Shown piece by piece: positions 6,058-47,720 of a stretch of DNA of 64,000 nt. This DNA is from an uncultured bacterium. GTDB taxonomy: Bacteria > Krumholzibacteriota > Krumholzibacteriia > JACNKJ01. The stretch's first letter is position 1, and every line of letters begins with the position of its first letter. The notes beneath the pieces were generated by a model that saw only the letters and a list, made by a program, of their open reading frames with translations, searched no databases and was not told where the DNA came from. Position numbers and translations under genes: made by a program. The stretch lies in NCBI GenBank assembly GCA_963695095.1, contig CAVOFT010000001.1, positions 160,001 to 224,000 of the forward strand, in the 5' to 3' direction.

Positions 6058-8697
<2,640 letters not shown>

Positions 8698-24364: not shown

Positions 24365-24403
24365 ATCCTCGCCCCTCCGGACGGGGGCCCCGGACGCCAG
24401 TCC

Positions 24404-25498
24404 CTAGATCAACTGGATGAAGCGGTTCTTGGAGCGACGCTTGAGCGCGCCGAAGGCCATGGCCAGCGGGAACATGACGGCCAGCAGCCCGAGCCAGCCC
24501 AGGAAGCTCTCCAGCACCGCCCCCTCGCGGTAGAAGAAGCCCAGCCGCCGCGTGAAGATGGCGAGCAGGGGAATGTGCACCGCGTAGAAGAAGAGCGGCA
24601 CGCGGCCGATGACGCCCAGGGGCTTGAGCAGGCCCGAGTGCATGCTGATGCGGCAGAAGAGCCCGACCATGAAGATCACGGCACCGGCGAACCAGAGCAG
24701 GTGCACGGCGTTGGGCGGGTACTTCTGCTCGAGGAAGAAGGACCAGCTGCCCAGCTCCGACCAGGGCGTCAGGTTGCCGTAGCCGCGGCCCGACCTCAGC
24801 AACACGGCCAGAACAACCAGCCCGAAACCGATCAGCATGCTCTTCGTCGAGCGCTCGGCGTGGGTCTTCCAGCCCTCGAACCAGAAGTGGGCCATCACCG
24901 AACCCACCAGCGCCATGCCGAACCAGGGCAGGGCGGGGTAGAGGTTGAAGGTGCCCGAATCGATGAACATCTGCATGGGCACGTGCACCCAGCCCTTGGC
25001 GCTGTAGGGAATCTGCAGCAGGAAGTGCTGGCCGAAGATGAGCAGCGCGCCCAGGGCGAGGCGCAGCTGCCAGCGCCAGGTGATGACCAGGGTGAGCAGG
25101 ATCATCGCCGTGCCGATGCAGGCGATGATGCTCCAGTGCAGAGGCCGCCAGGAATTGAAGCCGCTCCAGGCGGAGTTCACCCAGGTCATCTGGACGAGGA
25201 TCAGGAAGAGCCCGCGCTGGATGAAGTGCCAGCGCGAGGCCCAGTCGCCGGCGCCGCCCCGCCGCCGCCGCCAGTAGGCCCAGTAGACCATCGCCCCGTT
25301 CATGATCAGGAAGCCGGGCGCGCAGAGGTAGCCCATGTAGCGCAGGCCGAACTGGGCGCCGCTGCCGAAGAAGGGGTCCTGGAATTCGAAGGCGTACCAG
25401 ATGTGGTTGAAGTACTCGTTGCTGTGACCCAGGGCCATCATGATGCCGATCAGGCCGCGGAACTGATCGATGAAGTGAAAGCGTTCCTTGACGGCCAT
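24404..25498 (-). CDS. DUF1624/HGSNAT-like multi-TM acyltransferase
   Basis: RFHFIDQFRG...MALGH, CAPGF, QRGLFL, LYPALPW, KYPP, GRVPLFFYAVH. Several TM helices. Confidence 0.85.
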   Translation of the reverse strand: MAVKERFHFIDQFRGLIGIMMALGHSNEYFNHIWYAFEFQDPFFGSGAQFGLRYMGYLCAPGFLIMNGAMVYWAYWRRRRGGAGDWASRWHFIQRGLFLILVQMTWVNSAWSGFNSWRPLHWSIIACIGTAMILLTLVITWRWQLRLALGALLIFGQHFLLQIPYSAKGWVHVPMQMFIDSGTFNLYPALPWFGMALVGSVMAHFWFEGWKTHAERSTKSMLIGFGLVVLAVLLRSGRGYGNLTPWSELGSWSFFLEQKYPPNAVHLLWFAGAVIFMVGLFCRISMHSGLLKPLGVIGRVPLFFYAVHIPLLAIFTRRLGFFYREGAVLESFLGWLGLLAVMFPLAMAFGALKRRSKNRFIQLI

Positions 25499-25548
25499 GG
25501 GCAGCCCACCCTCCCGGCGCGGGGCCGCAGCCCCGGCGCAGCTGGTCG

Positions 25549-27957
25549 CTAGTTGCCGAAGTCGCTGCGCACCACGCGCAGGCCGACGAAGTCCAGACGG
25601 GAATCGGGCGGCGCCGTCTCGCGCGCGGCCGAACGGCAGGCCTTGGCCTGGCTGAACCAGCTGCCGCCGCGCAGCACCTTGAGAAAGCCACCGGCGGGGC
25701 CCGCGGCGTCGAGGCCGATCTGGCTCGGGTAGCCGGCATACCAGTCCCAGCACCACTCCATGGCGTTGCCGTGCACATCGGCGAGGCCGAAGGCGTTGGC
25801 GGCGAGGCCGCCCACCGCCTGGGGCGCGTCCCCGGAGTTGCCGCAGTACCAGCCGATCAGATCCAGTCGGGGATCCTCGCAGCCCTGGTCGCTGATGGCG
25901 CCGTTCGTGAAGGCGGTCGCGCTGCCGGCGCGGCAGAGCCACTCCCACTCGGCCTCGGTGGGCAGGCGCCAGCCGTCGGCCTCGCGGTCCCACTCGACGT
26001 CGGTGCCGTCCACGGCATAGGCCGGCGTCCGGCCCTCGAAGATCGAGAGGGCGTTGCAGTAGGCCACGGCCTCGTACCAGGTGAGCCCCAGCACGGGCAA
26101 GCTGCCGCCGAGGAAGCTGGAGTCCGGCAGGGCGGGCCCCATGCGGTCCTGCCACCGGGCCTGGGTGACCTCCTGCGTGGCAGCGATGGGCAGGCGGGTG
26201 AGCAAGGCGGGGTGCTGCGTCTCATCCGGCTCGCGACCGAGCTCGCTGAGCGGGCTGCCCATGGTGAAGACCACGTCGCCGACCAGGGGGCCGGACAGCG
26301 TGGCCGTCGTCGGCGTGTGGCCGTCGCCGTCGTCGAAGGCGGCGAGGAAGCTGTGCGCGCCGGGGGCGAGGGTCGTCTGCAGGCGGTAGAGCGCGTTCGT
26401 GGCGTGATCGCCGGAGACGAAGCCCATCGCCGTCGGCGCGCCGTCGATGACGAGATCGTGGGTGACGGGCACGTCGCCTTCGGGGTCCGAGTAGCTCACC
26501 GTGAAGGTGAAGAGCTGTTCATCGTCGCCGTAGGCCGGCGTGACGGCGAGGCCGAAGAGGAAGGTGCCGTCGGGGAAGGTCGTGGCGCTGGCGCCGACGC
26601 CGAGGCCGGACATCTGGCCGGCGTCGTCGGTGGCGCGCAGGGCGAAGTGGTACTGGGTCTCGGGCGTCAGGCCGCCCACGGAGAATTCCTGGGCCGTGCC
26701 GACCACGGCGGGCAGGGGCAGGCCGGTGACGGCGGTCGCCGCCGCCCAGGCGGTTTCGTTGTTGATCGGCGTCGCGGCATAGCGCAGGGCGTAGTGCTCC
26801 GCCTCGCCGATGTAGCGATCGTCGCCGGGCGCCTTCCAGCTCAGGCGGACGGCGGTGGCGCCCAGGGTCTCGGCGCTGAGCGTGTAGATGCCGCCGGGCG
26901 CTGTGCGATCCGCGAAGGGCGCGCCGGCCAGGATGAGCAGGCCCTCGTCCTCGTCGGTGACGAGCACCAGCCCGTCGTCGGTGAGTGCGACGCCGGTGGC
27001 GTTGCTGCTGCGGACGTTGCCCGCGTAACGCGGGTGGGCGGGGTCGCGCACGTCAACGACGTGCAGGCCGGCGTCGTTGCCCGCCACGAAGGCGAGGCCG
27101 TCGCGCACGGCGATGTCCACGCACCAGCCATCCAGGGGCATCCGCGACACGGGCACCGGCGCCTCGGCGCCATTGATGCGAAAGACGCTCATCCCCTGCC
27201 GCTTGTCGGCAACGAAGGCGTAGTCGCCCCAGATGTCCACGGCGAGCGCGTTGCCCGGCGTGTCCGTCCAGGAAACGAGCACCACCGAGTCGAGCACCAG
27301 TACGCGGGCATCGAGCACGGCCAGGCCCATCTGGTCGTCGGCCACGTAGGCGTAGCCGCCCTTCACCGCCAGGTCCATCGCGTAGCCGTTCGTGTCGGCG
27401 AAAACGCCGCCGTAGGCGAGCAGGCCCGGATACAGGGGGCTGGATTCGAAGACGCGCACGCCCTTCCAGCTCTCGGCCACGAAGAGGATGAAGGGCTGCT
27501 CGGGATTCTCCCGCTCGACGGCATGCATGCCGTTGCCGTCCACCGCCGTCGTGCCCTGGTTGAAGGAGACGGCGTTCGGCGGGTCGGTGATGTCGTAGGT
27601 GGTCACGCCTTCAGTGCCTTCGACGATCATCGCGATGTCGCGGATGACGCCCCCGGCAAAGCTGCGCAGCACCTTGATATTCTCGGCGTACTTCGTGGTG
27701 GGCACGGTCTTGACGAGCAGGGGTGCCGCGGGATTGCTGATGTCCACCACATGCAGGCCCGCCTGACCGCCGGCGACGAAGGCGTAGTCGCCGATGACGT
27801 CCACACTCTCGTTGATGCTGGGCAAGGGCAGGCGGCCGACCAGCGGGTAGGGCGAGTCGGGGATCTCGTAGAGATCCTCCTTCCCGCAACTGCCGGCGAG
27901 CGCGATCAGGGCGAGCGCCAGGGCGATGGCCGCGAGGCGGGTGGACTGCATGCTCAT
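25549..27957 (-). CDS. Lipoprotein: LVIVD beta-propeller + FN3 + Ig-like + FGE/SUMF1-like domain
   Basis: Lipobox LAGSC. YAFVA...GLHVVDISNP repeats, LSWKAPGDD...GLTPETQYHFAL (FN3), and FTMGS, EVTQ, RLPTEAEWE, NAFGL.D.HGN..EW, RGGSW (FGE-sulfatase). Confidence 0.88.
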   Translation of the reverse strand: MSMQSTRLAAIALALALIALAGSCGKEDLYEIPDSPYPLVGRLPLPSINESVDVIGDYAFVAGGQAGLHVVDISNPAAPLLVKTVPTTKYAENIKVLRSFAGGVIRDIAMIVEGTEGVTTYDITDPPNAVSFNQGTTAVDGNGMHAVERENPEQPFILFVAESWKGVRVFESSPLYPGLLAYGGVFADTNGYAMDLAVKGGYAYVADDQMGLAVLDARVLVLDSVVLVSWTDTPGNALAVDIWGDYAFVADKRQGMSVFRINGAEAPVPVSRMPLDGWCVDIAVRDGLAFVAGNDAGLHVVDVRDPAHPRYAGNVRSSNATGVALTDDGLVLVTDEDEGLLILAGAPFADRTAPGGIYTLSAETLGATAVRLSWKAPGDDRYIGEAEHYALRYAATPINNETAWAAATAVTGLPLPAVVGTAQEFSVGGLTPETQYHFALRATDDAGQMSGLGVGASATTFPDGTFLFGLAVTPAYGDDEQLFTFTVSYSDPEGDVPVTHDLVIDGAPTAMGFVSGDHATNALYRLQTTLAPGAHSFLAAFDDGDGHTPTTATLSGPLVGDVVFTMGSPLSELGREPDETQHPALLTRLPIAATQEVTQARWQDRMGPALPDSSFLGGSLPVLGLTWYEAVAYCNALSIFEGRTPAYAVDGTDVEWDREADGWRLPTEAEWEWLCRAGSATAFTNGAISDQGCEDPRLDLIGWYCGNSGDAPQAVGGLAANAFGLADVHGNAMEWCWDWYAGYPSQIGLDAAGPAGGFLKVLRGGSWFSQAKACRSAARETAPPDSRLDFVGLRVVRSDFGN

Positions 27958-27987
27958 CCTCCGTCTGCGAAGGCCGCGCGTGCGCGG

Positions 27988-29619
27988 CTAGAACAAGGTG
28001 CTGCTGAAGCCGATCCAGTAGGTGCGGCTGATGTAGTTCTTGTCTTCCTTGATATCGCCCCACCAGGGTGAATCCACGTCGCGCTCGGCGTAGCCGAAGC
28101 CGAAGTCCATGTCCACCGCTTTGGGCAGGCCGAAGCTGGCGAAGACGGCCGGCAGGTCGCGGCTGCCCTTGAGCTGGTAGGTGTAGCTGTTGTCCTGCCG
28201 TCCGACGTGATAGGTGTCGTCCGAGATCGTCTGCGTGCCCTTCGCCGAGTAGTAGTCGACGCTGTACTGGGCGCGCACGCGCAGGTCGCTGACCAGGCGC
28301 TTGAGCGCGGCCTGGCGCGGCACCCAGCGCAGCTCGGCGTTGTAGGTGTTCCCTTTGTAGGTGCCGTCCGAGGCGGGGCTGGTATCCAGCGCCTCCCCCT
28401 CGACGTCGATGGCACGCGCGGCGGCGTTCTCGAAGCCGTAGCTGAGCGTGAGCCGCCAGGGACGGGCGATCGTCCAGTAGGCCGTGATGTCGATGCCGAG
28501 GGTGTTGAGATCGTTCTCCAGGTGCGGCTTGTTGTAGTAGTAGAGCTTCTTGGTCAGGGCGACGTTGGCGCTGAGGTCCTTGCGCAGCCGATGGCGCCAG
28601 GTGCTGACGATGCGATTGCGCTCCAGGCGGAACTGCTCGCTCACGACGGGCGTGGTCCCCGCGACGAGCGGCGGGCGGTCGTTGAGCTGCCGCAAGTACT
28701 TCGAGGGGCTGTAGGCGTAGTAGACCTCGAGGCTGTTGCGGCCGAAGAACTGCCGCGCGACGACGCGGAACTCGTGGTTGTCGAGCACGGTGTTCGTCGC
28801 GTACTGCTCGCGCGAGTAGCGGAAGCTGAAACGCGTCGCGCCCTGGGCGAGGAACTTGCGCTGCCCGGTGAGATCCAGGGAGGGCGAGAGGATGAGATCA
28901 TCCAGGCGCTCGATCTTCTGGAAACGCTCCTCGTTCCAGTACAGCCGCGTCAGGTACTCCTGCCGGAAGGCCTCGGACATCTGGAAGACATTGTCCTCGT
29001 AGGTGAAGCCGAGGCTGGCATCCAGTCCCCAGGTGAGGCCGAAGCGTTCGTTGGCGGCCCGGGGCCTGGGCGGCTTGGGGACCTGCAGCGGCTCCGTGTC
29101 CCACTGCGGCGGGCCCTCGTAGAAGAGGGCGACGTAGAGCGGGCCGCCGCCATCGAGGCTGCCGGTGAGCCGCAATTCGTGGCGGCCGGCAGGGATGGCG
29201 AGATCGAGCCAGGTGCCGCGGCTGGGGCTGCCCGCGCGGCCGTCGGCGTAGCCGCCCAGGCGGGAGGCGGCGAGCTCGAGGGGCAGTTCGGCGGGCAGGC
29301 CGGGCACGCCGGCCAGGCGCAGCAGGCCGCTGCGCGTGGTGCTGTCGCCTTCGGCGACGTGGGTCTTCACGAAACCGCTCAGGGTGCCCGGCCCCTCGAG
29401 GCGGTAGGTCAAGCCGGCCGCCGGCATCACGCAGTAAACCGCGGCGGCTTCGGCGCGGCCGAGCAGTAGCGTGGCCGGCTTGCCCTGCGGCCACAGCTCC
29501 ATGTCGGCAAGCGCGGGGCCGGCCAGAAGGAGCGCGCCGACCAGGGCGGCGAGGGCGGCCAGGGAGCACCAGGAATGGCGGGGCCTACGCTGCATGGAAT
29601 GGCAGATCCAGCGAATCAC
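27988..29619 (-). CDS. Putative outer-membrane beta-barrel with N-terminal beta-sandwich domain
   Basis: Signal-like hydrophobic stretch, alternating aromatic beta-strands (LGFTYEDN, FSFRY, WRLTLSYGF, FGFGYAERD) and terminal YWIGFSSTLF ending in Phe. Confidence 0.75.
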   Translation of the reverse strand: MIRWICHSMQRRPRHSWCSLAALAALVGALLLAGPALADMELWPQGKPATLLLGRAEAAAVYCVMPAAGLTYRLEGPGTLSGFVKTHVAEGDSTTRSGLLRLAGVPGLPAELPLELAASRLGGYADGRAGSPSRGTWLDLAIPAGRHELRLTGSLDGGGPLYVALFYEGPPQWDTEPLQVPKPPRPRAANERFGLTWGLDASLGFTYEDNVFQMSEAFRQEYLTRLYWNEERFQKIERLDDLILSPSLDLTGQRKFLAQGATRFSFRYSREQYATNTVLDNHEFRVVARQFFGRNSLEVYYAYSPSKYLRQLNDRPPLVAGTTPVVSEQFRLERNRIVSTWRHRLRKDLSANVALTKKLYYYNKPHLENDLNTLGIDITAYWTIARPWRLTLSYGFENAAARAIDVEGEALDTSPASDGTYKGNTYNAELRWVPRQAALKRLVSDLRVRAQYSVDYYSAKGTQTISDDTYHVGRQDNSYTYQLKGSRDLPAVFASFGLPKAVDMDFGFGYAERDVDSPWWGDIKEDKNYISRTYWIGFSSTLF

Positions 29620-29625
29620 CGGGGC

Positions 29626-30528
29626 TCACCTCGTGCTCACGTCGGCTTCGGGGATGAGGATCTGGGCGGCGATGCCGCAGGCCTCGGGCCGCACGCAGCG
29701 CAGCTCGAAGCGGTGGCGGCCGCGGGGGACGGGCACGCGCAGCAGCTTGCGGTCGCCGGGCAGCACCTGAGGCTTGCCCACGTAAGCCGCGCTGTCCAGC
29801 TTGTCGGCCTGGTAGTGGTAGGTGTTCACGCTGACGCCGTCGCGCAGCAGCTCCAGCGCGTAGGGCTGGGCGCCGCTCATCTGATGATCGAAGTCCAGGC
29901 GGGTGTAGACCTTGAGCGTGGTCGGTCCGGTCACCGTGAAGCCGAGCGGGGAGTCGGCATGGAAGTGGTAGTAGGCCGAGGTGCTGCCGCTGGCGAACTG
30001 CAGCCTGGCCACGGAGTCGTACTGCTCGGGCGCGAAGGCCACCTCCTTGGTCTTCACCCGCTTGACTTCGCGGTAGAAGCGCGCTGCCGCCCGGCCCTCG
30101 CCCTCGACTTCGGCGTAGACCTGGATCTGATGCTTGCCGGTCGGCACGCGCACGGTGGTGCTGCGCAGGGCGGCCGCCTCGCCGCCACCGCTGCAGCGCG
30201 CCGCGCCGGCCAGGACATCGCTGCGGTAGCTGCGGCGCAGCACTTCCTCGCCGTCCAGGAGCACGCGCAGCGTGTAGACGCCCGTCGTCGCGTCGCCGGG
30301 CCCGAAGAGGTAGCGGCTGACGATCTTGAGCTTGCGCGGTCCGCGCAGCTCGATCACCGCCGGCTTGGCGGGATCCAGGAGCGTGTAGTCGAAGGACTGG
30401 CCCTTCACGGCGAGACAGACGTCGCCGGGGCTGTCCGCCGCCTTGAGGCTGCGCCAGGCGGCCGCAGCCTCCCGGGGCAGCAGAGCCAGCGCGCCGATGA
30501 AGAGCAGAGCGAGCCAAGGCCGTTTCAT
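29626..30528 (-). CDS. Secreted protein with two internal repeats, unknown function
   Basis: Signal peptide. Two copies of a GP..L...R / Y.L...DG / VP.G.H pattern. ATGA overlap with pgsW. Confidence 0.8.
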   Translation of the reverse strand: MKRPWLALLFIGALALLPREAAAAWRSLKAADSPGDVCLAVKGQSFDYTLLDPAKPAVIELRGPRKLKIVSRYLFGPGDATTGVYTLRVLLDGEEVLRRSYRSDVLAGAARCSGGGEAAALRSTTVRVPTGKHQIQVYAEVEGEGRAAARFYREVKRVKTKEVAFAPEQYDSVARLQFASGSTSAYYHFHADSPLGFTVTGPTTLKVYTRLDFDHQMSGAQPYALELLRDGVSVNTYHYQADKLDSAAYVGKPQVLPGDRKLLRVPVPRGRHRFELRCVRPEACGIAAQILIPEADVSTR

Positions 30529-31649
30529 ACCGAGTCACCATCCATTCGGCCGCTCCAGCGATCGAAGAGACCGCGGCGCAGCTCAGGAGCCAGGACCAGG
30601 ACACAAATGGCGCAGTATAGCACGAGCAAGGGAGCCGCCAGGGCCAGGCGATAGCTCTCGCGCACGAAGATGTCCCCCTCGCCCGGCTGGGGATGGTAAT
30701 CGGGCGCCACCGGCAGCCCCACCTCTCGCGCCAGATCCTCCATGTTGAGCAGGTGGATCACGGGGATGCCGCGCTCGGCCATCAGTACCATCGTGCCCTT
30801 GCGCGGGTAGTTGTGGGTGCCCAGGTCGAAGTTGAGGCCCTCGGGCAGCAGCACCTTGTTGCGGCTGGTGCCCAGGCTGGCCACGCCGCCGCCCACGTTG
30901 ATGAAGGCCTTCGCCCGGCGGCCGCGCAGGGCCTCGACGTAGAAGGTCATGCGCTGGGTGATGGCCTCCTCGATGTTCTCCGAGTCGAGCCGGCGCACCC
31001 CGTTGCGCTCGATCGCCACGCGCAGGCGCTCGCGACCCTCCGGGCTGAGGCCCTGGCCCATGTCGTCGCCGCCGCCATAGCTGGCGGCCGCCGAGCGGAT
31101 GTGGAAGATGTTCTCCTCCGCGAAGAGGCGCTCCATGTCCAGCCAGGTGAAGTCCGGATCGTTGGCGCCCCACATCGAAGCGCCCACGGAGGTGATCACG
31201 ACCGGCGCGAGCTCGAGCGTTTCCAGGGCCGCGAAAACGCTGATGTTGAGGCCGGGGAAGGAGCCCGAGAGCGCGACCGCCACGGGATCCCCCGGCTTGA
31301 GGCCGCAGCGGCGCAGGTAGCCGACGATGACCCCGGCCCAGTTGGGATTGAGCGTGGTGAGCTTGGAGCCGAGCACGCCCTGGGCGTTGGTGATCAGGCT
31401 GAACTCGGGGCCGATCAGGCCCGTGCCGGCCGGGTCGTTGACGAGGTCGAGGACGGCACCCTCCATGAGCCGGTGCCGGCGCACGGCGCCGAAGGCGAGC
31501 TCGGCCCGCCGTGCCGCCTCCAGCTTCAGGTCGTAGTCGCGCTGGCGCACGGGCTTGCGCGTCAACTCGAGCGAGGCCTGGAAGGCGAGAGCGAGCAGCG
31601 CGAGCCCCAGCAGGATGAGCTGGCGGCGCCTATCGGATCGCGAACTCAA
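30525..31649 (-). CDS. pgsW: Poly-gamma-glutamate system protein PgsW
   Basis: DP..TGLIGPEFS.IT...G.L.SK.TT.NPN, SGSFPGLN, SVGASMWGAN, GGGDD, FINVGG, IPVIHLLN. N- and C-terminal TM helices, directly after pgsC. Confidence 0.88.
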   Translation of the reverse strand: MSSRSDRRRQLILLGLALLALAFQASLELTRKPVRQRDYDLKLEAARRAELAFGAVRRHRLMEGAVLDLVNDPAGTGLIGPEFSLITNAQGVLGSKLTTLNPNWAGVIVGYLRRCGLKPGDPVAVALSGSFPGLNISVFAALETLELAPVVITSVGASMWGANDPDFTWLDMERLFAEENIFHIRSAAASYGGGDDMGQGLSPEGRERLRVAIERNGVRRLDSENIEEAITQRMTFYVEALRGRRAKAFINVGGGVASLGTSRNKVLLPEGLNFDLGTHNYPRKGTMVLMAERGIPVIHLLNMEDLAREVGLPVAPDYHPQPGEGDIFVRESYRLALAAPLLVLYCAICVLVLAPELRRGLFDRWSGRMDGDSV

Positions 31650-32103
31650 TGAGCCCCCCTCCCTGCGCCACCACCAGCGCCAGGCGCACGATGAAGGCCG
31701 CCATCAGCATGGTGCAAAGCGTCTCGAAGATGCCCTGCCGCAGCATCCAGTAGGCGATGAGCCCGGGGATGATGTAGCCGATGGACTGGACGATCGTGAA
31801 GTCGACGCCCAGGCCCATCCAGTCGCCCGCGATGAGCAGGAAGCGCGTGGCGTAGCCGAAGATGAAGCCGGCCAGCACGCAGAAGACCAGCGTCCGCCGC
31901 CCGTAGAGCAGGATGTGGCGGCTGAGCAGGCGCAGGCTGAGGTAGGTGATCAGCGCGGCGACGATGGTGCCCAGGATGCGCAGGGGCTGGTCCAGATAGA
32001 GCGCGATGTAGCCCGGCACGATGAGGCCGCCCGCCGCCAGGCCGAGCACCTCCGAGAAGACCAGGCTCACCACGAGACCGAGACCGATGGACTGGTAGAT
32101 CAC
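31630..32103 (-). CDS. pgsC: Poly-gamma-glutamate biosynthesis membrane protein PgsC/CapC
   Basis: IGLGLVVSL.FSE..GL.AGGLIVPGYIAL, ILLYGRR, IGYIIPGLIA. GTGA overlap with pgsB. Confidence 0.95.
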   Translation of the reverse strand: MIYQSIGLGLVVSLVFSEVLGLAAGGLIVPGYIALYLDQPLRILGTIVAALITYLSLRLLSRHILLYGRRTLVFCVLAGFIFGYATRFLLIAGDWMGLGVDFTIVQSIGYIIPGLIAYWMLRQGIFETLCTMLMAAFIVRLALVVAQGGGLIEFAIR

Positions 32104-33281
32104 ACGCTCACCTCGCGACCTGCAGCGCAGCGACCCTCGACGAGGTCGAGCAGGTCCACGCCGACGCCGCCGATGTTCCCCAGGCCCACCAGGCGCACCC
32201 GCGGGCCGCCGAGCTGCACCACCTTGGCCAGCACTGCGGACGCATTGCGCCCGCTCATGGCGACGAGCTTGGCCGCCGGCACGCCCCGCCGGCGCAGGAT
32301 CTCGGCGAAGACATCGGTCTGCTCGCCGATGATCAGGTAGTAGGCGGCGCGGATCCTGTCCCCGAAGAGCGGCGCCAGGTCTTTGCTGCGCCGCATGCGA
32401 TCCGCGCGAATGTTGATGAGGGCGATCGCCTCGTCCTCGTGTTCGGGCAAGCCCAGATGCTCCCAGACGAAGGCCGTGGACTCCGGGTCGTTGGCCGCGA
32501 AGAGGTTCACGAACTCGATGTCGGTGTCGCCCTCGTGCCAGCGGTAGGGCAGGAGGGCGCCGATGTCGGGCTTGACCGTCCACATGCCGGCCAGGGCGCG
32601 GGCCTTGTCCACACCGGCGGCCTCGCAGGCGGCCAGGGCCAGGGCCAGGTTCTCCGCGAACTCCACGTACTGGAAGCCGCGCAAGTCGTCTTCGCTCACC
32701 GACGCCGGATCGCTCTGCACGAAGCGCGCGCCAAGCGACTTGGCCTTGGCGGCAAAGAGCTCGGCGTAGTCGTCCTCGGCGGTGATGAGCAGGCTGCCGC
32801 GGGGCACGGTGCCGGCCAGGCTCTGGGCGACGTCCTGCATGCGCGGGCCCATGACTTCGAGGTGGTCCGGCCGCACGTTCGTGATGACGCCGATGGTGGA
32901 CGCCACGATCTGGTGCTCGCAGACCCACTGCAGATCGGGCCGCACGGCCATGCACTCGAGCACGATGGCCTCGGCCTTCTCGTTGGCCGCGCGGCGGAAG
33001 ATGCGCAACTGCTCGCGGATGTTGGGCGCGCCGCGGCGGCGCACGGGGATCTCGCGGCCATCGGGGAGGATCACGCGGGCCGCCGAGCCCGTGGTCTTGG
33101 CGAAGGTGCGCACGCCGCCGCCGCGCAGGCCGGCCGCGATGAGGCGCGTCACCGAGCTCTTGCCCCGGCTGCCGTTGACATGGATGCGAATCGGGACGCG
33201 CCGGCGCACCAATCGATGGCGGACCGTCTCGGCGATACCGAGGGCGGCCAGCAGCACGAAGAGCAGCACGATCAGCGTCAT
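32100..33281 (-). CDS. pgsB: Poly-gamma-glutamate synthase PgsB/CapB (Mur-ligase-like)
   Basis: RIHVNGSRGKSSVTRLI, AKTTGS, NIREQ, ECMAV.P..Q, ITNVRPDHLEVMG, FAANDPEST. Confidence 0.96.
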   Translation of the reverse strand: MTLIVLLFVLLAALGIAETVRHRLVRRRVPIRIHVNGSRGKSSVTRLIAAGLRGGGVRTFAKTTGSAARVILPDGREIPVRRRGAPNIREQLRIFRRAANEKAEAIVLECMAVRPDLQWVCEHQIVASTIGVITNVRPDHLEVMGPRMQDVAQSLAGTVPRGSLLITAEDDYAELFAAKAKSLGARFVQSDPASVSEDDLRGFQYVEFAENLALALAACEAAGVDKARALAGMWTVKPDIGALLPYRWHEGDTDIEFVNLFAANDPESTAFVWEHLGLPEHEDEAIALINIRADRMRRSKDLAPLFGDRIRAAYYLIIGEQTDVFAEILRRRGVPAAKLVAMSGRNASAVLAKVVQLGGPRVRLVGLGNIGGVGVDLLDLVEGRCAAGREVSV

Positions 33282-33353
33282 TGCCCGATTCCCGTAACGC
33301 GGGGAGGGTGGCGGTCCGGCGCCGCCGTCCCTGAGCCCAGCCGGCGATCCGCC

Positions 33354-36300: not shown

Positions 36301-37127
36301 TAGGCCACCGTCTTGGCGACGATGGTCGCCACCTCGTAGGAGGAGTTGACGGGCATGCGGCCGAGGAAGAGATCGGGCAGCCAGTCGCCGGTGTCCATGA
36401 GCGCGTAGGGCAGGTCCGTGGGATTGTCGCTCATGTCCCAGGTGGGGATGTCGTCGACATCGCCCACGATGAGCAGGTACTCGGGCGGATTGGCCCAGTT
36501 CGCATAGGCGTTGCGGATCCAGGCCTGGATGGCGATCGTCGAGCCGCCGGTCTGGGCCGTGGTCGCCACGCGCACCTCGAAGCCCTTGCGGCGCTTCCAG
36601 TCGACGAGGGGCGCCAGGGCGTCCACGTACTGCGGCACGGTGATGATGAGATAGCTGCCGCTGGCGCTCTCCGTGCGGAAGTCCGGCGGCAGGGTCTCCG
36701 CGAGCAGGGCGGCGAAGCCCCGCGCGGGGCGGCGGGCCGCGGCCCGGGTCCAGTCCCCGTCGTGCGCCAGCTCCACGCGCAGGTCCTGGGCAGCGCTGAG
36801 ATCGCCCTCGAGCGACAGCAAGGCCACGGGCAGGCCACCGAGGCGGCCGAGGATCCGCGCCCTGGCGCTGGCGCCCGCCGGCCCCGCGGCCAGGCGGGCC
36901 GCGGCCCAGGTGGCATCGGGCGGCAGGGCCACCAGGCGAGCGCCGGTGCTCGGGGAGTCCGCGGAGCGATCACCGGCCGAGCCGGTGAAGCTCAACAGGC
37001 TGCGATCGGGGAGGATCTCGACATGGCTGACCAGGGCTTGCTGGACGGGCGCTGCGGCGGCGACCCCGAGGGCCGCCGCGGCAGTCAGTCCGCTTCCGAG
37101 AGCAAGCGCCGCGAGCGCGCGCTTCAT
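33354..37127 (-). CDS. C25 (gingipain/PorU-like) family protein with Ig-like repeats, NIDO-like domain and FlgD/T9SS-like CTD
   Basis: YLIIT...LVDWKRRKG, YLLIVGD, PDLFLGR, CLNG, YNLLGDP, GPDAYGYYAYDS and C-terminal PNP...WDGRDEAGRRVPAGIYFYRL. TAATG coupling to the upstream gene. Confidence 0.88.
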   Translation of the reverse strand: MKRALAALALGSGLTAAAALGVAAAAPVQQALVSHVEILPDRSLLSFTGSAGDRSADSPSTGARLVALPPDATWAAARLAAGPAGASARARILGRLGGLPVALLSLEGDLSAAQDLRVELAHDGDWTRAAARRPARGFAALLAETLPPDFRTESASGSYLIITVPQYVDALAPLVDWKRRKGFEVRVATTAQTGGSTIAIQAWIRNAYANWANPPEYLLIVGDVDDIPTWDMSDNPTDLPYALMDTGDWLPDLFLGRMPVNSSYEVATIVAKTVAYERAPAGANPDWMNRYLMVAGNFGSETPISTVQFFGEQLDSLGFENAFTYLPPFDGVYFPPVFNGVSLIAQTINSGVGMVAYRGWAYGTAGWEPPHFIVNDIPALTNTGMTPVVMSFVCLNGNFKANEDCFGEVWLKAGTPTQGRGAVAFIGNGEHWSHTRFNDAMAIAFAEKIDEPEIRDLGQLALASKLRFMDYFPHQLDETGNEESVEFYVHIYNLLGDPELNIWRAAPTALVVTHPATIHAGVNSLEVTVREAGGSLLAGARVGVVQGETLLGTAFSDAGGLAHVSLAQGVAATGELAITVTHPDRLPYEGTASPTAAGAFLAAASAAIDDAAGNGDGLASPGETLDITVTLANGGDADATGVTAVLLAHGGADVEQPDASFADIAAGGTAAAATPFTVTLASALEDGQRLRFTLTAEHSGGSEDDSDLILPVVAPALSVTATSFGDPGQAMPGQSVQLVLALTNTGHLATGALTGTLALLDPALGSVSDADGAWSALALGATGDNAGNPFTLAVAADVPHGKSLPLLLTLTDDAGFSVDLPLALTAGLLNPAAPVGPDAYGYYAYDSADLFYSERPAYAWRELSPLFGGSGTKLVVNFDNEVQPMLPLPFDFVYYGKTVSSLRVSDNGWISFDDASQFDFYNWNLPNQHGNHSVIAPFYDNLTVIAADSLSGSEYIDGIYTQADAAAGTFTVEWSRVRHFRPEITDLQSFEVVLYDPAMHPTASGDGEIAFFYRLVSDSDYARGYATVGMEDDTETIGLELSYSGLTTPGMLPPSPGLAVKLTTEPPVYDRYRLDGFSAEAAGTGLALSWTSSDPRPVTGWRLWRSGPAGEQLVAELPPGRRHCEDPGADPARDEVYRLEALHPYELISSLGPFHSLAAADAPSSLRLSLGQSLPNPMRESARIDFVLPAPGVCSLKVYDTNGRLLRRLAEGALPAGPASRIWDGRDEAGRRVPAGIYFYRLDAGGRVLTRKLLVIH

Positions 37128-38791
37128 TATTTGACCAGTATCATCCGTCTCGATTGGGTTTCGCCGAGGGCGTCCAAGGAGTAGAAGTAGACGCCGCTCG
37201 CCGCGGGCTTGCCCCGGTCGTCGCGGCCGTCCCAGACGACCTGGTGACTACCGGCCGCCAGCGTTCCCTGGGGAAGCGTGGCGATCCGGCGGCCCGCGAG
37301 GTCGTGGACGCGGATGCTAGCAACTCCGGGTGCATCAAGCACGAAGAATATGGTCGTCTTCGGGTTGAAGGGGTTGGGCGCATTGCCCACCAGGCGCGCG
37401 GCGGCCTGGGGCAGTTCGCCGACGCCGGTCTCGCAGCCCGTGCCGATGGCGCCGATGAGTTCGCCGTCGCAGGCCGCGGGGCCGTTCGGGTGATTGCCCG
37501 GCATGCAGGGGCTGCCGGCGGCGATGGCGCCGACGGCGGCATCGCGCAGGCCGACCGGCACGCAGAATTCGGGATCCAGCGAGAAGTTGCCGCCCCCGTC
37601 CGTGCCGCAGAGGGCGTCGCCTCCCGCATTGCCCCAGACGTCCGAGCAGCTGATCGTCGGGTTCGCGCTCAGGCAGTAGATGCCCAGCCCGCGCTCGCTC
37701 TCGGCGATGATGCACTTGTCGATGATGGCGTCGCCGCCGAACTGGCAAGCGATGTTGCCGCCGTAGACATCCGGGTTGGCGCTGAGCGTGTTGCCGGCGA
37801 TCGTGCAGTGGCGGATCGTCGGCACCGGGCTGTAATTCACGCAGACGCCGCCGCCCTCGGCCCAGAAGCCGGAGGCCGCATTGCCCACGATCACGAGGTA
37901 CTCGAGCAGAGGCGTGGAGCCGTCCACGTGGATGCCCCCACCCAGCCCGTAGGTGTAGACCGCGCTGTTGTTCTGCACGAGGCAGTGGCTCATGGTGCCG
38001 GCGGCGCCGTTCATGAAGGCGATGCCGCCGCCATAGCCCTGGGTGCTGTTGCCGGACAGGACGCAGTTGGTGATCAGGGGCGCGGCCTCGAGGCAGAGGA
38101 TGGCCCCGCCGCTGCCGAAGGCCGCGTTGGTGGAGTTCCCCTCGAAGGTGCAGCCATCGAGGATCGCGTTGCAATTGGCGCGGATGATCAGGGCGCCGCC
38201 GGCGGGCGAGGAGTTGCCCTGGAAATAGGAGTCGTAGCACTGGGTGTCGCTGGCCTCCTCGATGGCCAGGCCGCCGCCCTGCTTGCCGACGTTGCCGATG
38301 AAGTCCATCCGGCGCAGCACGGGGGCGGAGTTGTTGATGCAGATGACGCCGCCGTCGGTGTTGCCCTGGATCTTGACGTCGTTCACCTCGACGCTCGCGT
38401 CCACCTGGCGCATCAGGATGCCCGCGCCGTAGACGGTGGCGAAGGCGCCGCGCACCTGGAGCTGCTCGATGCGCACGTTGCTGACCAGTTCCACGAAGAT
38501 GCCGCGGCCGAGGCCCTGGGCGTCGATGATCGTGGCGTCCTTGCCGGCGCCGCGCAGGGTCACCCCCGTCTTCATGATCACCGAGGCCGGAGTGGAGCCG
38601 GCGCCCTCGGTCTCGTGCGTGCAGTCGTGGTAGGTGCCGGCGGCGACCTGGACCGTGTCCCCCGCCGGGCAGGCCTGGACGGCCGCATGAATGGTGCTGT
38701 AGTCGCCGGGGACGTTGATGACGCCGCCCTGCGCCAGGCTCGCCGCGAGGGCGAGCAGGGCGAGCGGCAGTAGCCCGAGCATTCTTCTCAT
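37127..38791 (-). CDS. Secreted parallel beta-helix protein with FlgD/T9SS-like CTD
   Basis: Signal peptide, INVPGDYSTI...GDTV.VAAGTY, N...GGG repeats, CSDVWGN...DPEFC, NAPNPFNP...WDGRDDRG...SGVYFY. SD GGAGGG. Confidence 0.88.
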   Translation of the reverse strand: MRRMLGLLPLALLALAASLAQGGVINVPGDYSTIHAAVQACPAGDTVQVAAGTYHDCTHETEGAGSTPASVIMKTGVTLRGAGKDATIIDAQGLGRGIFVELVSNVRIEQLQVRGAFATVYGAGILMRQVDASVEVNDVKIQGNTDGGVICINNSAPVLRRMDFIGNVGKQGGGLAIEEASDTQCYDSYFQGNSSPAGGALIIRANCNAILDGCTFEGNSTNAAFGSGGAILCLEAAPLITNCVLSGNSTQGYGGGIAFMNGAAGTMSHCLVQNNSAVYTYGLGGGIHVDGSTPLLEYLVIVGNAASGFWAEGGGVCVNYSPVPTIRHCTIAGNTLSANPDVYGGNIACQFGGDAIIDKCIIAESERGLGIYCLSANPTISCSDVWGNAGGDALCGTDGGGNFSLDPEFCVPVGLRDAAVGAIAAGSPCMPGNHPNGPAACDGELIGAIGTGCETGVGELPQAAARLVGNAPNPFNPKTTIFFVLDAPGVASIRVHDLAGRRIATLPQGTLAAGSHQVVWDGRDDRGKPAASGVYFYSLDALGETQSRRMILVK

Positions 38792-38849
38792 CGTGGAGTC
38801 CCTCCCGGGAGCGTGAATGGGGATCGAAATCTGGAGATGACAGGCTTTA

Positions 38850-39013
38850 ATTCTAACACAGGGGTTGAGGGCATGGCCAATCTTGCGCTTTCGCAAAGGG
38901 TGCCGGGATATCCCCTGGTGCCGCCTGGCTCCTCCGCCAGGATTGTTTCCCTTATCTGAATTTCTAAGCTCCCAAGACCGGTGTCGACAGCCAAACACCC
39001 GATCATGTACAAT
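38850..39013. promoter_or_regulatory. Divergent promoters for the PGA operon and the second C25 gene
   Basis: Minus strand: extended -10 TG-T-TAGAAT at 38858-38850. Plus strand: TCGACA(38984-38989)-N18-TACAAT(39008-39013). Locally AT-rich. Confidence 0.55.
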
Positions 39014-39105
39014 TGAGCGGACATTTCGGCCCGCCAAGTCCGGATGCCCTGCTGGGGGCGGCCGAAACCTTGCCACCCTCTCCGTCGATGCTACTGGAGG
39101 CACCC

Positions 39106-42100
39106 ATGCGCAGGCTTCTCGGGCTCTTCGCCATTGCCATCCTGTCCCTGGTTCCCACCGCCCAGGCGACGACCCAGCCGCAGCAGCTGATCCTGCTCCC
39201 CGGGTCGGAGGACCCCGCGCCCGCGCTGCGGCTGACCGCCGAGGCCGGCGACCGGCTGGAGCTCGAGTTCACGCTACCCGCTCTACAAATGGAGGACATC
39301 GCCCTCGATGGCCAGAGCTTCCAGGCCCTGGCCATCGCTGGAGGCGGCCTGGTCGGCGAGGAAGGCCGTGCCGCGCTGCCCACCTTCAGCCGCCTCGTGG
39401 CCGTGCCGGTGGGGATGGCCGTGAGCGCGCGCGTGGTCGCCAGCGAGGAGGCGGCCTTCGCGGGCTATCGGCCCCTGCCCATGCAGCCGGCCGAGGCGAA
39501 GACCCCCGTCATCGACCGCGCCTGGTACAGCGGCGGCGAGGCCCAGCGACTGCCCCTGGTCCAGGTGGGCGAGCCGGCCATCATGCACGGCCAGCGCCTG
39601 GTGCCCGTCTCCGTGAATCCCGTCTCCTGGAGCCCGGCCAGCGGCACCCTGACGGTGGCCAGCCGCGTCCGGGTCGAGCTGGAGTTCAGCGGCAGCGATC
39701 TGCGCGCGACGCCTCGCGAGCGGGACTACATTCCCGCGTCCTTCGACAACCTGTTCCGGGACCTCCTGCTCGGCTACCGCGCGGGCGAGGCCCAGGTGGG
39801 ACCGGGCACCTACCTCGTGATCGTCCGCAATGACGCCAGCATGCTCAGCGCCATCGAACCGCTCCTCCAGTGGCGGCGCCAGCAGGGCTACAACGTCGTC
39901 GTGGAGACGAACGGCGCCAGCGGCACCACGGTCATCAAGAACAGCATCCTGAGCCACTACAACAACGACGACCCGCCGCTCGAGTTCGTGACCCTCGTCG
40001 GCGACGCCACCGGTACCTACGCCGTGGCCACCTTCCACGAGTCCTACTCCGGCTACGGTGGCGAAGGCGACAACGAGTACTCCCTGCTCGAGGGCGGCGA
40101 CTGGTTGCCCGACGTGCACATCGGCCGCCTGACCTGCGACAGCCCGACCAACCTGACCGCCATCGTCACGAAGATCCTCGGCTACGAGCAGACGCCCCCG
40201 ACGGCCGACGCCGGCTGGTTCTCCCGCGGCGTCTGCGTGGGCGACCCCGGCTCCTCGGGGATCACCTGCGTCTGGGTGAACCAGTGGCTGGCCGATCAGC
40301 TCTGGGCCAAGGGCTACACGAGCGTCACCGAGGTCTACAGCGGCAACTTCGCCACCCAGATGATCACGGCCATCAACGCCGGCAGCTCGGTCTTCGCCTA
40401 CCGCGGCTACTGGAACATGAGCGGACTCACCGAAAGCGGCATCCTGGGCACCGCCAATAGCGGGAAGCTGCCCTACGCCGTCATCCCCACCTGCGACACC
40501 GGCTCCTTCGAGTCGGATGCCACCTGCCGCTCCGAGGCCTTCCTCAAGGACACGAACGGCGGTGGCATCGGCGCCGTCGGCACGGCGACACTCGGCACCC
40601 ACACCCGCTACAACAACTGCTACTTCATGGGCAACTGGGAAGGCGTGATCAACGGCAGCGACCACCACATCGGCTCCGGTCACACGCGGGGCAAAGTGGC
40701 GCTGTTCAACAACTACATGAACTACGAGAACAACCAGGTCTACATCTGGTCCACCTGGAACAACCTCATGGGCGATCCGGCCTCCGATATGTGGACCAGC
40801 TATCCCGGCACGGTGACGGCGACTTATCCGGCCACGGTGCCGGTGGGCGCCAACTCCATCGCCGTGCACGTGACCAGCGGCGGCAGCTCCCTGGCCGGCG
40901 CCCTGGTCAGCCTCTACAAGGCCGGCGAGCTGCGCTCGGTGGGCTACACGGATGCCGGCGGCAACGTCAACCTGCCGGTCTCCGGCGTCACCGCGGGCAC
41001 CCTGAACGTCACCGTGACCAAGCACGACTACTTCCCCCACCGGGGCACGCTGACCCTGGGCAGCGTCGGCACCTATCTGGCCTTCGGCGGCGTCACCATC
41101 GATGACGACACGGTCGGCAGCAGCAGCGGCAACGGTGACCACATCGTCAACCCCGGCGAGACGCTCGAGCTGCCGGTGGCCCTGCGCAACCTGGGCACAA
41201 CGACGGCGAGCGGCGTCACCGCGACGATCAGCACGGGCAACCCCTATGTCACGGTGATCGACGGCGCGGAGACCTACAGCAACATCGCCGCCGGCGCCAC
41301 CGTCTGGAGCGCCGAGGACTTCGACGTGGCGATCGCGGCCAGCGCCCCGGACGGTGCCACGCTGGACCTGGACCTGAAGGCGACGAGCGGCGCCGGCAGC
41401 TGGACCAGCCTCGTCCGCCTGACGGTGCAGAGCGCCGCTTTCAACTACCAGAGCTATGTCTGGAGCGGCGGCGGCGGCACCCTGGACCCGGGCGAGACCG
41501 GCAGCCTCACCGTGAGCCTGCAGAACACGGGCAGCGTCGGGGCCGGCTCCGTGACGGCAACGCTGGCCAGCGCCAGCCCCTGGATAACGATCACCGATGC
41601 GGCCGGCAGCTACGGCACGGTGGGGATCGGCGGCTCGGCCACCAACACCGGCAATCCCTTCGCCTTCAGCGTCTCCTCGGACTGCTTCCAGGGCCACCTG
41701 GCCAGCTTCACGCTGACGCTGAGCTTCGACGGCGGGCGCCAGGACCTGGTGGAGTTCAACCTGCCCGTCGGCACGGGCAGCACGGACGACCCCCTCGGCC
41801 CGGATGTCTACGGCTACTATGCCTTCGACAACACGGACACGAGCTATCCCTGGGCGCCCACCTACGCGTGGGTGGAGATCTCGGGCGTGGGGACGGACGT
41901 CAATCTCACCGACCTGGGCTGGGAGCAGGACGACACCAACCTCGTCAACCTGCCCTTCACCTTCACCTACTATGGTCAGGATTTCACCCAGGTCTCGATC
42001 TGCTCGAACGGCTGGATCGCGATGGGCGCCACCGACATGGTGAGCTATCGCAACTGGTCGATTCCGGCGGCGGGCAATCCCGACGCCATGATCGCCGGCT

Positions 42101-43897
42101 TCTTCGACAACCTCTACCTGTCCGCGAGCAACCGCGTCTACACCTGGTACGACAGCGACAACAACCGCTTCGTGATCCAGTACAACAATGTGCGCAACGA
42201 CTATAGCGACGCGACGGAGAAGTTCGAGATCATCCTCTACGACCCCTCGCAGTGGGTCACGGCCACCGGCGACGGTCCCATCCTCATGCAGTACATGACG
42301 GTGGGCAACACGGATGCCCGCGACGGCTACGCCACGGTGGGCATCACCAACCTCGACGGCACCGACGGCCTGCTCTACACCTACGCCTCCGACTATGCGC
42401 CGACGGCGGCAACGCTGCAGACGGGACGCGCCATCCTCTTCCAGCCCATCGGCGAGCTGGCGCTGGGCACCCTCGAGGGCGACCTCACCAACAGCAGCAA
42501 CGGCGGCACGCCGGTGGCGAACGTGGGCGTTCACCTGGTCGAGAACAACCAGACCCTGCTCTCGGCGACGGACGGCCACTACGCCGGCAGCGTGCAGGAG
42601 GGCGTCTACACGGTGCGCGTGGAGCACGAGAGCTTCACGACGGTGACGGTGACGGGCGTGAACATCGTCGAGGACCAGGTGACCGACCTGGACTTCCAGC
42701 TCACCGACATCCTGGGACCCTACATCACGAACGTCACCGTGCACGAGCACACCGAGGACACGGCGGGGCCCTACGTCATCGAGGCGAACATCGAGGACTT
42801 CTCGGCGATCAGCGAGCTGCACTTCCGCTACAAGCTCAACGGCGGCGGCGACTTCGAGGTGCCGCTCGTGCTGATCGACGCCGGCAGCGGCCTCTATCGC
42901 GCCGAGATCCCCGGCCTGCCGCTGAGCACGCAGGTCAGCTACTGGCTCGAGGCCGTGGACGCGGCGAGCAACGCGAGCCGCAACCCGGCGACTCCAGGCA
43001 CCTACTACGATTTCTACATCGTCGAAAGCCACATGGTGGCCGACCACGATCTGGAGACCGACCAGGGCTGGACGGTGGGCCAGGCGGGCGACGCCGCGAC
43101 CACGGGCATCTGGACGCGCGTGGACCCGATCGGCGTCTTCGCCGGCGACGAGCCGGTGCAGCCCGAGGACGACGTCAGCAATCCGGGCACGCTGTGCTAC
43201 GTCACCGGCAACGCGGAGACGGGCAGCCAGGGCGCGGATGACGTCGACGGCGGCCAGACCACCCTGCTCACCCCCTGGTTCGACCTCAGCGCGATGCTGA
43301 GCGCCACGGTCAGCTACTACTACTGGTACGTGAACGACACCGGCAGCAACCCGTACGAGGATTACTGGGCCGTGGAGATCACGGACGACGGCGTCAGCTG
43401 GGTGCAGCTCGAGCACTCGAACGTGAGCACGCACGCCTGGGTGCAGCGGAGCTTCAACGTGGCCGACTACGTGGGCCTCAGCAGCACGGTGCGCCTGCGC
43501 TTCGTCGCCTCGGACTTCGGCGGCGGCTCCATCGTGGAGGCGGGCATCGACGAGTTCTTGCTGAGCGGCTACCTGACGCCCGATCCCACGGCGGTTGACG
43601 AGGGCGCCGTGCCGGCCAGCGTCACCCTGCTGCAGAACGTGCCCAACCCCTTCAACCCGAAGACGGAGATCCGCTTCGGCCTGCCGGCGGCGGCAGCGGC
43701 CGATCTGAAGGTCTACGACACCACCGGCCGCCTCGTGCGCACGCTGCTGGACGGGGCGCCCTACGGCGCCGGCTTCCACCGGGTGAGCTGGGACGGCACG
43801 GACGAGCCGCGGCCAGCGCGCGAGCACGGGCGTCTACTTCTACGTGCTCGAGACGGGCGCCGAGCGGCAGCACGGCAAGATGCTGCTGCTCAAGTAG
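39106..43897 (+). CDS. Large C25 family protein (propeptide, C25, Ig repeats, NIDO-like, carboxypeptidase-regulatory-like, CTD) with +1 frameshift at ~43807
   Basis: SD GGAGG and signal peptide. WRRQQG, FVTLVGD, PDVHIGR, CDTG, NLMGDP, GPDVYGYYAFD, NVPNPFNP. After WDGTDE the shifted frame reads RGQRASTGVYFYVLETGAERQHGKMLLLK-stop (43895-43897). Confidence 0.88.
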
Positions 43898-43956
43898 CTC
43901 GTGCGAATCCGCCCTGAATTCGGAGGTCCGGCGGCAGCGCCGGGCCTCTCTCTGTT
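43892..43956 (+). terminator. Intrinsic terminator within direct repeat copy 1
   Basis: AGGTCCGGCG-GCAG-CGCCGGGCCT hairpin followed by a pyrimidine/T tract. 53/56 identical to 47651-47706. Confidence 0.75.
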
Positions 43957-47629: not shown

Positions 47630-47650
47630 CAGGTCAGATGGCCTAAGAGT

Positions 47651-47714: not shown

Positions 47715-47720
47715 GTCAGC

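Follow-up and report, generated by a model that had tools for sequence, protein, structure and literature searches.

Poly-gamma-glutamate serves as a capsule, as a biofilm component, and as an industrial polymer, and it has been studied almost wholly in one-membrane bacteria. In Bacillus subtilis (PgsBCA(E)) and Bacillus anthracis (CapBCADE), the synthase genes pgsB and pgsC (capB and capC) are accompanied by a gene for a third membrane protein, PgsA/CapA, and by polymer-handling genes, including capD of the gamma-glutamyltransferase (GGT) family and a small capE/pgsE gene. Fusobacterium nucleatum is the only Gram-negative producer listed as proven in an excerpt of a paper on the polymer (PMC3815933). 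Francisella carries a capBCA cassette, the capA gene of which is named "poly-gamma-glutamate system protein" in tables of two papers (PMC5362203, Table 3; PMC9643745); an extract from a review (PMC4688374) gives the function of the cassette as unknown and describes capB and capC as dispensable for the capsule. Here, we describe a cluster of ten genes in a 64,000-nucleotide stretch of DNA (hereafter, the window; contig C1:160001-224000, with a GC content of ~70%) from an uncultured member of the Krumholzibacteriota with a genome of 3.64 Mb in two contigs. The cluster comprises nine minus-strand genes, in the order H-C25a-pgsB-pgsC-pgsW-R-O-L-A, and one divergent gene, C25b. It is a conserved functional unit, and we consider it reasonably probable that it makes poly-gamma-glutamate (or a very similar gamma-glutamyl polymer) and moves the polymer across a two-membrane envelope.

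The locus shares with the Bacillus systems equivalog-level PgsB and PgsC, a third membrane protein encoded next in the operon, and putative polymer-handling genes beside the synthase. It differs from them in that PgsA/CapA (PF09587) is missing from the locus and a TIGR04332 protein is encoded instead, in that family scans of the window found neither a CapD/GGT gene nor a small CapE/PgsE gene, and in that the cell has an outer membrane and the cluster has R, O, L, and A, which monoderm systems lack. The likeness to Francisella capBCA, compared here through the literature, lies in a three-gene pgsB/pgsC cassette with a PgsW-type third gene in a two-membrane bacterium; the difference is that no R, O, L, or A partners have been reported for Francisella.

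The synthase cassette was identified by scanning 39 open reading frames (ORFs; 11 + 28) of the window with Pfam and NCBIfam models. The gene pgsB (32100-33281, minus strand) encodes the ligase subunit of poly-gamma-glutamate synthase (TIGR04012, E = 5e-121, 404 bits against a cut-off of 222.7), pgsC (31630-32103, minus strand) encodes the synthase membrane subunit (TIGR04011, 2.8e-33, 115 bits against 96.45; Caps_synth_CapC PF14102, 3.5e-32), and pgsW (30525-31649, minus strand) encodes a TIGR04332 poly-gamma-glutamate system protein (4.8e-93, 311.7 bits against 100); each of the three thus scores above its curated NCBIfam cut-off. PgsW, whose gene directly follows pgsB and pgsC and overlaps the pgsC stop by 20 nt, occupies the position held by PgsA/CapA in Bacillus and consists of a middle part of ~300 amino acids (aa) with hydrophobic segments at both ends. 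It has no match in Pfam at E = 10 and no sequence relative in the PDB (profile of 27 sequences, E = 1), and its neighbors in a sequence search of the protein atlas are all "poly-gamma-glutamate system protein" clusters. The pgsBCW, R, O, and A genes are each present in a single copy in the genome.

The two genes that follow, R (29626-30528, minus strand) and O (27988-29619, minus strand), belong to no sequence family, with no Pfam match even at E = 10, and were characterized through structure models. R is a basic secreted protein whose AlphaFold model (pLDDT 92.5) consists of two jelly-roll beta-sandwiches resembling carbohydrate-binding modules (CBMs). Its best solved matches in Foldseek are tandem CBM22/CBM51 structures, with BcsB at rank 29, and the TM-scores are low because the two domains are differently placed. 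The model of O (pLDDT 86.7) is that of an outer-membrane protein with an N-terminal beta-sandwich (residues ~40-168) and a barrel of 14 strands (residues ~190-543). Foldseek placed OmpG and CymA at the top among solved folds, and structural alignment gave Z 24.1 for CymA (280 residues, rmsd 3.4) and Z 21 for OmpG (250-267 residues), at an identity of only 6-13%, followed by FadL/PorV at Z 15-17. Mature R has a pI of 9.37, and the orthologues of R and O have median pI values of 9.29 and 9.2, respectively, a basic character that suits a polyanion.

R and O are related to each other, and in some genomes R is fused to a protein of the synthase cassette. Domain 1 of R and the N-terminal domain of O are homologues (hhalign probability 97.2%, E = 2.9e-11), and relatives of O carry zero, one, or two copies of this beta-sandwich. 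For example, a 732-aa O homologue from an Eisenbacteria-type locus (L155:6938-9136) has two N-terminal beta-sandwich domains, and some Krumholzibacteriota homologues of 370-430 aa apparently have none. In 7 of 31 collinear loci, PgsW and R are fused in a single open frame of 668-672 aa, to which PgsW (residues 1-364) and R (residues 377-665) both align. Open frames of 675-699 aa are found at pgsW in 17 genomes, and proteins of 671-693 aa with a C-terminal R are among the top profile matches in a library of 1.84 billion proteins (1,013 matches at E <= 1e-3 and 189 at E <= 1e-30). What the original prediction had called a repeat protein is modeled as a pair of CBM-like beta-sandwiches, fused to PgsW in some genomes. 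What it had called a barrel is modeled as an outer-membrane channel of 14 strands, preceded by an N-terminal domain that shares homology with the repeat protein. An R-O fusion was also suspected in one Eisenbacteria genome with a 1,004-aa open frame and was rejected: R is encoded in a different frame, and the long ORF reflects a lack of stop codons in GC-rich DNA. Instead, the barrel protein of that genome carries two N-terminal domains.

The linkage of these genes was surveyed in two phyla, Krumholzibacteriota and Candidatus Eisenbacteria. TIGR04332 was found in 73 of 208 Krumholzibacteriota species genomes, including all 11 other genomes of the family to which the window belongs and 57 of 91 genomes in a second family. 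Forty pgsW-centered stretches were compared with the window proteins. In 30 of them, the nine genes H-C25a-pgsB-pgsC-pgsW-R-O-L-A have the same order and orientation; one stretch is cut by a contig end just after R, and nine are of other kinds. With one exception (L037), every stretch with a flank long enough to show it has the divergent C25b upstream of H. Identities among the collinear loci fall to 30-38% for O and 41-50% for R, showing that the gene order has outlived much sequence change. The arrangement is, as far as sequence comparison can tell, far beyond chance, given its recurrence in dozens of genomes with protein identities of 28-60%.

A profile of O matched 67 of the 208 Krumholzibacteriota genomes, of which 65 have both O and pgsW and 2 have O only; a further 8 have pgsW only. 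Both O-only genomes are fragmented assemblies, and in one of them the O match lies at a contig start. Among 206 Candidatus Eisenbacteria genomes (match threshold for the O profile, E <= 1e-10), pgsW occurs in 67 genomes and O is matched in 78; 63 genomes have both, and 4 have pgsW alone. These counts were tallied by hand in both phyla, and no statistic is attached to them, as related genomes are not independent.

Scanning the species genomes with the O alignment yielded 72 O-centered loci, in which R directly precedes O in 56 and L directly follows it in 66. The gene orders seen (Ca, Cb, B, C, and W stand for C25a, C25b, pgsB, pgsC, and pgsW, and < marks opposite orientation) are as follows: (i) H Ca B C W R O L A; (ii) Cb< H Ca O L A B C W R; (iii) A< B C W R O L; and (iv) (A<) O L Ca< H<. 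The second order, with pgsBCW-R placed after O-L-A (Cb being variably present), accounts for 5 of the 72 loci. The differing orders occur at just 27-38% O identity, and the distant loci (27-31%) are from Candidatus Eisenbacteria. Eleven of the 72 loci have neither pgsBCW nor R in reach, and several of these are short contigs; pgsW was found elsewhere in all five of the tested genomes whose O locus lacked pgsBCW, in one case ~25 kb away on the same contig. H and C25a occur together in 41 of the 72 loci, and C25a occurs alone in 5 more at contig ends. A divergent group of Eisenbacteria keeps just pgsB-pgsC-pgsW-R-O.

As judged from gene content, these five genes are the constant core of the cluster, in most cases followed by L and A; the Cb-H-Ca trio forms a third module that is often present. 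A linkage that survives such shuffling of modules is the strongest evidence here for a shared function. The original prediction was to fail if the flanking genes did not accompany pgsBCW in other genomes; they do so across two phyla and in rearranged orders. Some lineages that have the core lack the C25/beta-helix trio.

The remaining genes of the block encode a putative lipoprotein and an acyltransferase. L (25549-27957, minus strand) has a lipoprotein-like signal peptide and LVIVD (9.6e-30), fn3, and FGE-sulfatase (9.5e-32) domains. The best solved relatives of its FGE-sulfatase/C-type-lectin-like domain are Treponema denticola TvpA (2e-28) and then PvdO, FGE, and PorK, a series that is at least as suggestive of a binding fold as of an enzyme. 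The last gene of the block, A (24404-25498, minus strand), encodes an integral-membrane acyltransferase (HGSNAT_cat/DUF1624, 3.7e-13; Acyl_transf_3, 4e-4), with an orthologue at 53-85% identity in 30 of the 40 pgsW loci. HGSNAT-type enzymes acetylate an amine across a membrane, and the sole free amine of poly-gamma-glutamate is its N-terminus; modification of the polymer by A is a guess by analogy.

The trio consists of predicted cargo of the type IX secretion system (T9SS). H (37127-38791, minus strand), the first gene of the minus-strand block, encodes a secreted right-handed beta-helix protein with a T9SS sorting domain (Beta_helix, 3.7e-25; FlgD_ig, 2.6e-10; Por_Secre_tail, TIGR04183, 27.8 bits against a cut-off of 23), and its orthologue lies upstream of C25a in related loci at 47-81% identity. 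C25a (33354-37127, minus strand) encodes a 1,257-aa gingipain-family protein (Peptidase_C25, 2.1e-60) with Ig-like domains and a sorting domain (TIGR04183, 25.4 bits). C25b (39013-43917, plus strand; 1,634 aa for the longest ORF) encodes another, with Propeptide_C25, Peptidase_C25 (2.3e-44), Ig-like, and CarboxypepD_reg domains; its sorting domain scores under the TIGR04183 cut-off and just above that of Pfam FlgD_ig (27.2 against 27 bits). The true start of C25b is probably 25-31 codons downstream of the longest-ORF start, at a signal peptide. Elsewhere in the genome, SprA (532 bits), a full-length PorU with both His and Cys (C1:2160338-2163721; NF033707, 438 bits against 420), and a PorV-like gene beside PorU indicate a working T9SS for the three sorting-domain proteins.

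The catalytic domain of C25a is related to the gingipain R and K structures (phmmer, 9e-31 to 6e-26). Aligned with gingipain R (4ief/1cvr), C25a has Trp at the position of the catalytic His (YRGWAY against YTGHGS) and retains the Cys. In C25b, the His is replaced by Tyr (YRGY), again with the Cys kept. Other C25 paralogues in the genome retain G-H-G. The description of the pair as atypical C25 proteins in the original prediction was correct. Its proposal that they anchor the polymer as PorU-like transpeptidases is not supported, given that the His is lost in all orthologues examined, that C25a and C25b score only 40.4 and 43.2 bits in the PorU model against the cut-off of 420, and that the canonical PorU is encoded elsewhere. 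Because the His is lost and the genome has a separate full-length PorU, C25a and C25b are, on the sequence evidence, T9SS cargo and neither sortases nor canonical peptidases. We also considered whether YRG-type C25 proteins are specific to pgs loci and rejected this, as a third one is encoded beside isocitrate dehydrogenase and phosphoesterase genes.

No PGA_cap, GGT, or Asp/Glu racemase family was found among the 39 window ORFs scanned, so the absence of capA and capD claimed for the locus holds for the window. It does not hold for the genome, in which three PGA_cap (CapA-family) ORFs, none near pgsBC and all at least 47 kb away, two GGT genes, and one glutamate racemase gene are found. PGA_cap, GGT, and glutamate racemase were also detected in 7, 8, and 10 of 14 control genomes, respectively, so their presence in this genome says little. 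One of the three PGA_cap ORFs encodes a 1,027-aa secreted protein with a T9SS sorting domain and adjoins another C25-family gene (C1:2736923-2743182).

A second type of pgsBCW locus occurs in the same phylum (L046:4812-13308; also L031 and L051). It lacks R, O, L, A, H, and C25 genes; directly upstream of pgsB stand genes for a 670-aa GGT (CapD family), a DUF6305 protein, and a DUF6923-like protein. Both locus types occur together in two genomes. No relative of the DUF6305, DUF6923-like, or 427-aa genes of the second type is present in the genome of the window, whose two GGT genes show only ~33% identity to the second-type GGT. The two accessory sets, GGT in one and C25-like proteins in the other, thus offer a natural contrast around the same synthase.

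In the mechanism that we propose, PgsB and PgsC would polymerize glutamate at the inner membrane, with PgsW in the place of the Bacillus PgsA/CapA. R would bind the polyanionic chain leaving the synthase and hand it to the like beta-sandwich on the periplasmic N-terminus of O, and the chain would exit via the 14-stranded channel. L would probably reside with O under the outer membrane, and A may cap the only free amine of the polymer. H, C25a, and C25b would be exported by the separate T9SS and act on or hold the polymer at the surface, via binding or non-canonical chemistry and not as PorU-type sortases. The gene identities, linkage, fusion, folds, and charges are results of the analysis, from which we infer the identity of the polymer, the direction of transport, and every individual role; export through R and O is a prediction well founded on the sequence comparisons and structure models. 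The original prediction had assigned to the locus synthesis, periplasmic guidance, outer-membrane passage, modification, and surface anchoring. Co-occurrence, folds, and the fusion fit the first three, the C25 sequences speak against anchoring by that pair, and modification by the acyltransferase keeps the status of a guess.

Several observations weigh against this mechanism, and many of them concern the trio. The genome has ~13 C25 paralogues, and a tblastn search with the beta-helix protein gave 166 hits, largely to the ~90-aa sorting domain, which suggests about a hundred or more sorting-domain proteins; such neighbors are therefore common. The catalytic His is absent from the C25 pair, with motifs that are invariant in 32 C25a and 22 true C25b sequences (six of the 28 rows in the C25b alignment are C25a cross-hits where the flank stopped short of C25b). 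L, H, C25a, and C25b are very acidic (pI 4.3-4.8), which is not suggestive of simple polyanion binding. The third His-less "YRGY" C25-like protein with a sorting domain (C1:3218363-3221485) is encoded among housekeeping genes, adjoining isocitrate dehydrogenase and metallophosphoesterase and away from any pgs gene. Finally, several Eisenbacteria loci lack the trio around the core and read B-C-W-R-O(-L), with no H, C25a, or C25b within ~4-10 kb. The same observations favor a narrower reading, in which only the core (pgsBCW, R, O, and perhaps L and A) is polymer-related and the trio is ordinary T9SS cargo, placed nearby by shared ancestry or regulation. We regard this as unlikely, as H and C25a persist together in 41 of the 72 O-centered loci, with C25b where the flank reaches and with reshuffled Eisenbacteria loci included, and linkage through rearrangement at ~40% identity is hard to ascribe to ancestry alone; moreover, the second locus type has a GGT gene by pgsB where the trio stands here.

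Other points bear on export itself. The nearest structures to O, CymA (Z 24) and OmpG (Z 21), are uptake/diffusion channels and not exporters, and known polymer exporters fit O less well (PgaA, Z 14.3; BcsC, 13.8; PelB, 13.0). Added to the resemblance of R to carbohydrate-binding modules of degradative enzymes and to the peptidase and lyase-like folds of the surface proteins, this could mean that R, O, and L are an uptake or turnover route for poly-gamma-glutamate fragments or another polymer, with the surface proteins as depolymerases. Such a route is very unlikely in our view: a PgsW-R fusion is seen in 7 of 31 loci, R and O stand immediately behind pgsBCW with translational coupling, O occurs without pgsW in just 2 of 67 Krumholzibacteriota genomes (both fragmented), family scans found no inner-membrane importer or cytoplasmic peptidase in the cluster, and the C25 pair is without the catalytic His. 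Less likely still is that the genes form a co-regulated envelope island, co-expressed with no direct mechanical coupling and not parts of one machine. The block is known here from genes alone, and the submodules B-C-W-R, O-L-A, and Cb-H-Ca are separable by up to tens of kilobases, as an island of this kind would allow; against it stand the PgsW-R fusion, the domain common to R and O, the overlapping stop and start codons, and the near-perfect co-occurrence of O and pgsW in two phyla. The fusion, the shared domain, and the near-obligate co-occurrence argue against uptake and mere co-regulation alike.

Export by the core must also be set against its exceptions. Eight Krumholzibacteriota genomes have pgsBCW and no O, seven of them with the second, GGT-adjacent locus type, from which it follows that R and O are not required by every diderm pgsBCW system. 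In Eisenbacteria, 15 genomes show a match to the O profile and have no pgsW; ten of these matches are weak (E above 1e-20) and may be other barrels. The CapA-family and GGT genes elsewhere in the genome are possible helpers, and, to our knowledge, poly-gamma-glutamate has never been shown in Krumholzibacteriota or Eisenbacteria.

The GGT that the second locus type has in the place of the trio, and the persistence of the trio beside the O-L module in rearranged loci, hint at a further role for the His-less C25-like proteins, in which the Cys and the Arg of YRG are invariant. They might be new surface handlers of gamma-glutamyl polymers that take over the task of CapD/GGT. They could tether the polymer, or the polyanion could anchor T9SS cargo, as Porphyromonas anchors such cargo on anionic lipopolysaccharide. 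This idea is quite unlikely to be correct as it stands; if true, type IX secretion would be connected with a polyamide capsule.

The ORF listing and the family scans confirmed the places, identities, and junctions claimed for the nine ORFs on the minus strand and the divergent one on the plus strand. From H onward, the junctions are TAATG (H/C25a), 72 nt (C25a/pgsB), GTGA (pgsB/pgsC, with the GTG start of pgsC over the pgsB stop), the 20-nt overlap of pgsC and pgsW, and ATGA (pgsW/R, with the ATG of R over the pgsW stop), followed by gaps of 6, 30, and 50 nt (R/O, O/L, and L/A). Such junctions fit a single predicted transcript. The spacer between H and C25b (38792-39012) contains one promoter-like site per strand (plus, 38984-39013; minus, 38879-38850), the only such sites outside genes; these are consensus matches only, from a scan that returned 3 promoter-like sites (expected, 0.9) and 7 terminator-like sites (expected, 5.1).

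The remainder of the window has no relation to the cluster and includes a Ser/Thr kinase gene, glycolysis genes, response regulators, and more sorting-domain proteins. Consecutive dnaA, dnaN, recF, gyrB, and gyrA genes (17-8697, plus strand) lie at the start of the window, which therefore begins at a likely replication origin region, with the pgs cluster ~25-40 kb away. At the other end of the block, a response-regulator gene (23326-24420, plus strand) matches only profile positions 1-36 of 174 of the CheB methylesterase and then becomes Arg/Pro-rich, and a second plus-strand frame (23885-24364) has a coding-like third-position GC (0.93); the two may be one frameshifted CheB-like gene converging on the end of the cluster. 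After C25b come further sorting-domain proteins (43956-53102, plus strand), namely, a DUF5122 propeller protein, which is not kept next to the cluster in relatives, a 988-aa protein, and an FG-GAP protein. A protein with Peptidase_C10 and FG-GAP domains (61376-64000, plus strand) extends past the window end.

We found no description of an R/O-type cluster in open-access papers and preprints, the literature that was covered (subscription journals fall outside this scope). Within it, no outer-membrane route for poly-gamma-glutamate is named, no paper mentions both Krumholzibacter and poly-gamma-glutamate, full-text searches for TIGR04332, pgsBCW, or the family name returned only two Francisella papers, and searches combining poly-gamma-glutamate with Gram-negative bacteria or the outer membrane returned reviews and Bacillus work. 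The cluster provides candidates for the passage of a polyanion through the outer membrane, namely, R as a putative periplasmic binding protein, joined to the synthase cassette by fusion in some genomes, and O as a dedicated channel of 14 strands, both backed by linkage in two phyla.

Beyond the poly-gamma-glutamate systems, parts of the cluster can be compared with several known families. C25a and C25b share with peptidase family C25 and PorU the catalytic fold (by sequence), the C25 Ig-like domain, the T9SS sorting domain, and the nucleophile Cys, and they differ in the replacement of His by Trp or Tyr in every orthologue examined. O resembles the monomeric outer-membrane channels CymA and OmpG in its modeled 14-stranded barrel, whereas its extra periplasmic beta-sandwich and its location in a synthase operon set it apart. 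In overall logic, the cluster parallels the synthase-dependent exopolysaccharide systems (AlgE/AlgK, PgaA/PgaB, BcsB/BcsC, and PelB/PelC), in which an inner-membrane synthase, tethered periplasmic polymer-binding domains (as in BcsB), a barrel with a lipoprotein partner, an acyl-modifying enzyme, and polymer-active enzymes are encoded in one operon. PelB, AlgE, PgaA, and BcsC all appear among the structural matches of O, and the barrel is encoded with the synthase here as well, O following pgsBCW-R in 56 of 72 loci. The differences are that the predicted polymer is a polyamide and not a polysaccharide, that no sequence relationship was found, and that O, with 14 strands in its model against the 16-18 of AlgE/PgaA/BcsC-type barrels, fits CymA and OmpG far better (Z 21-24 against 13-14). 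In addition, Pfam detected no TPR scaffold family in the ten cluster proteins, and the beta-sandwich domain occurs in that place. If the proposed mechanism is true, this cluster would represent a synthase-dependent secretion route with an origin separate from that of the polysaccharide routes.

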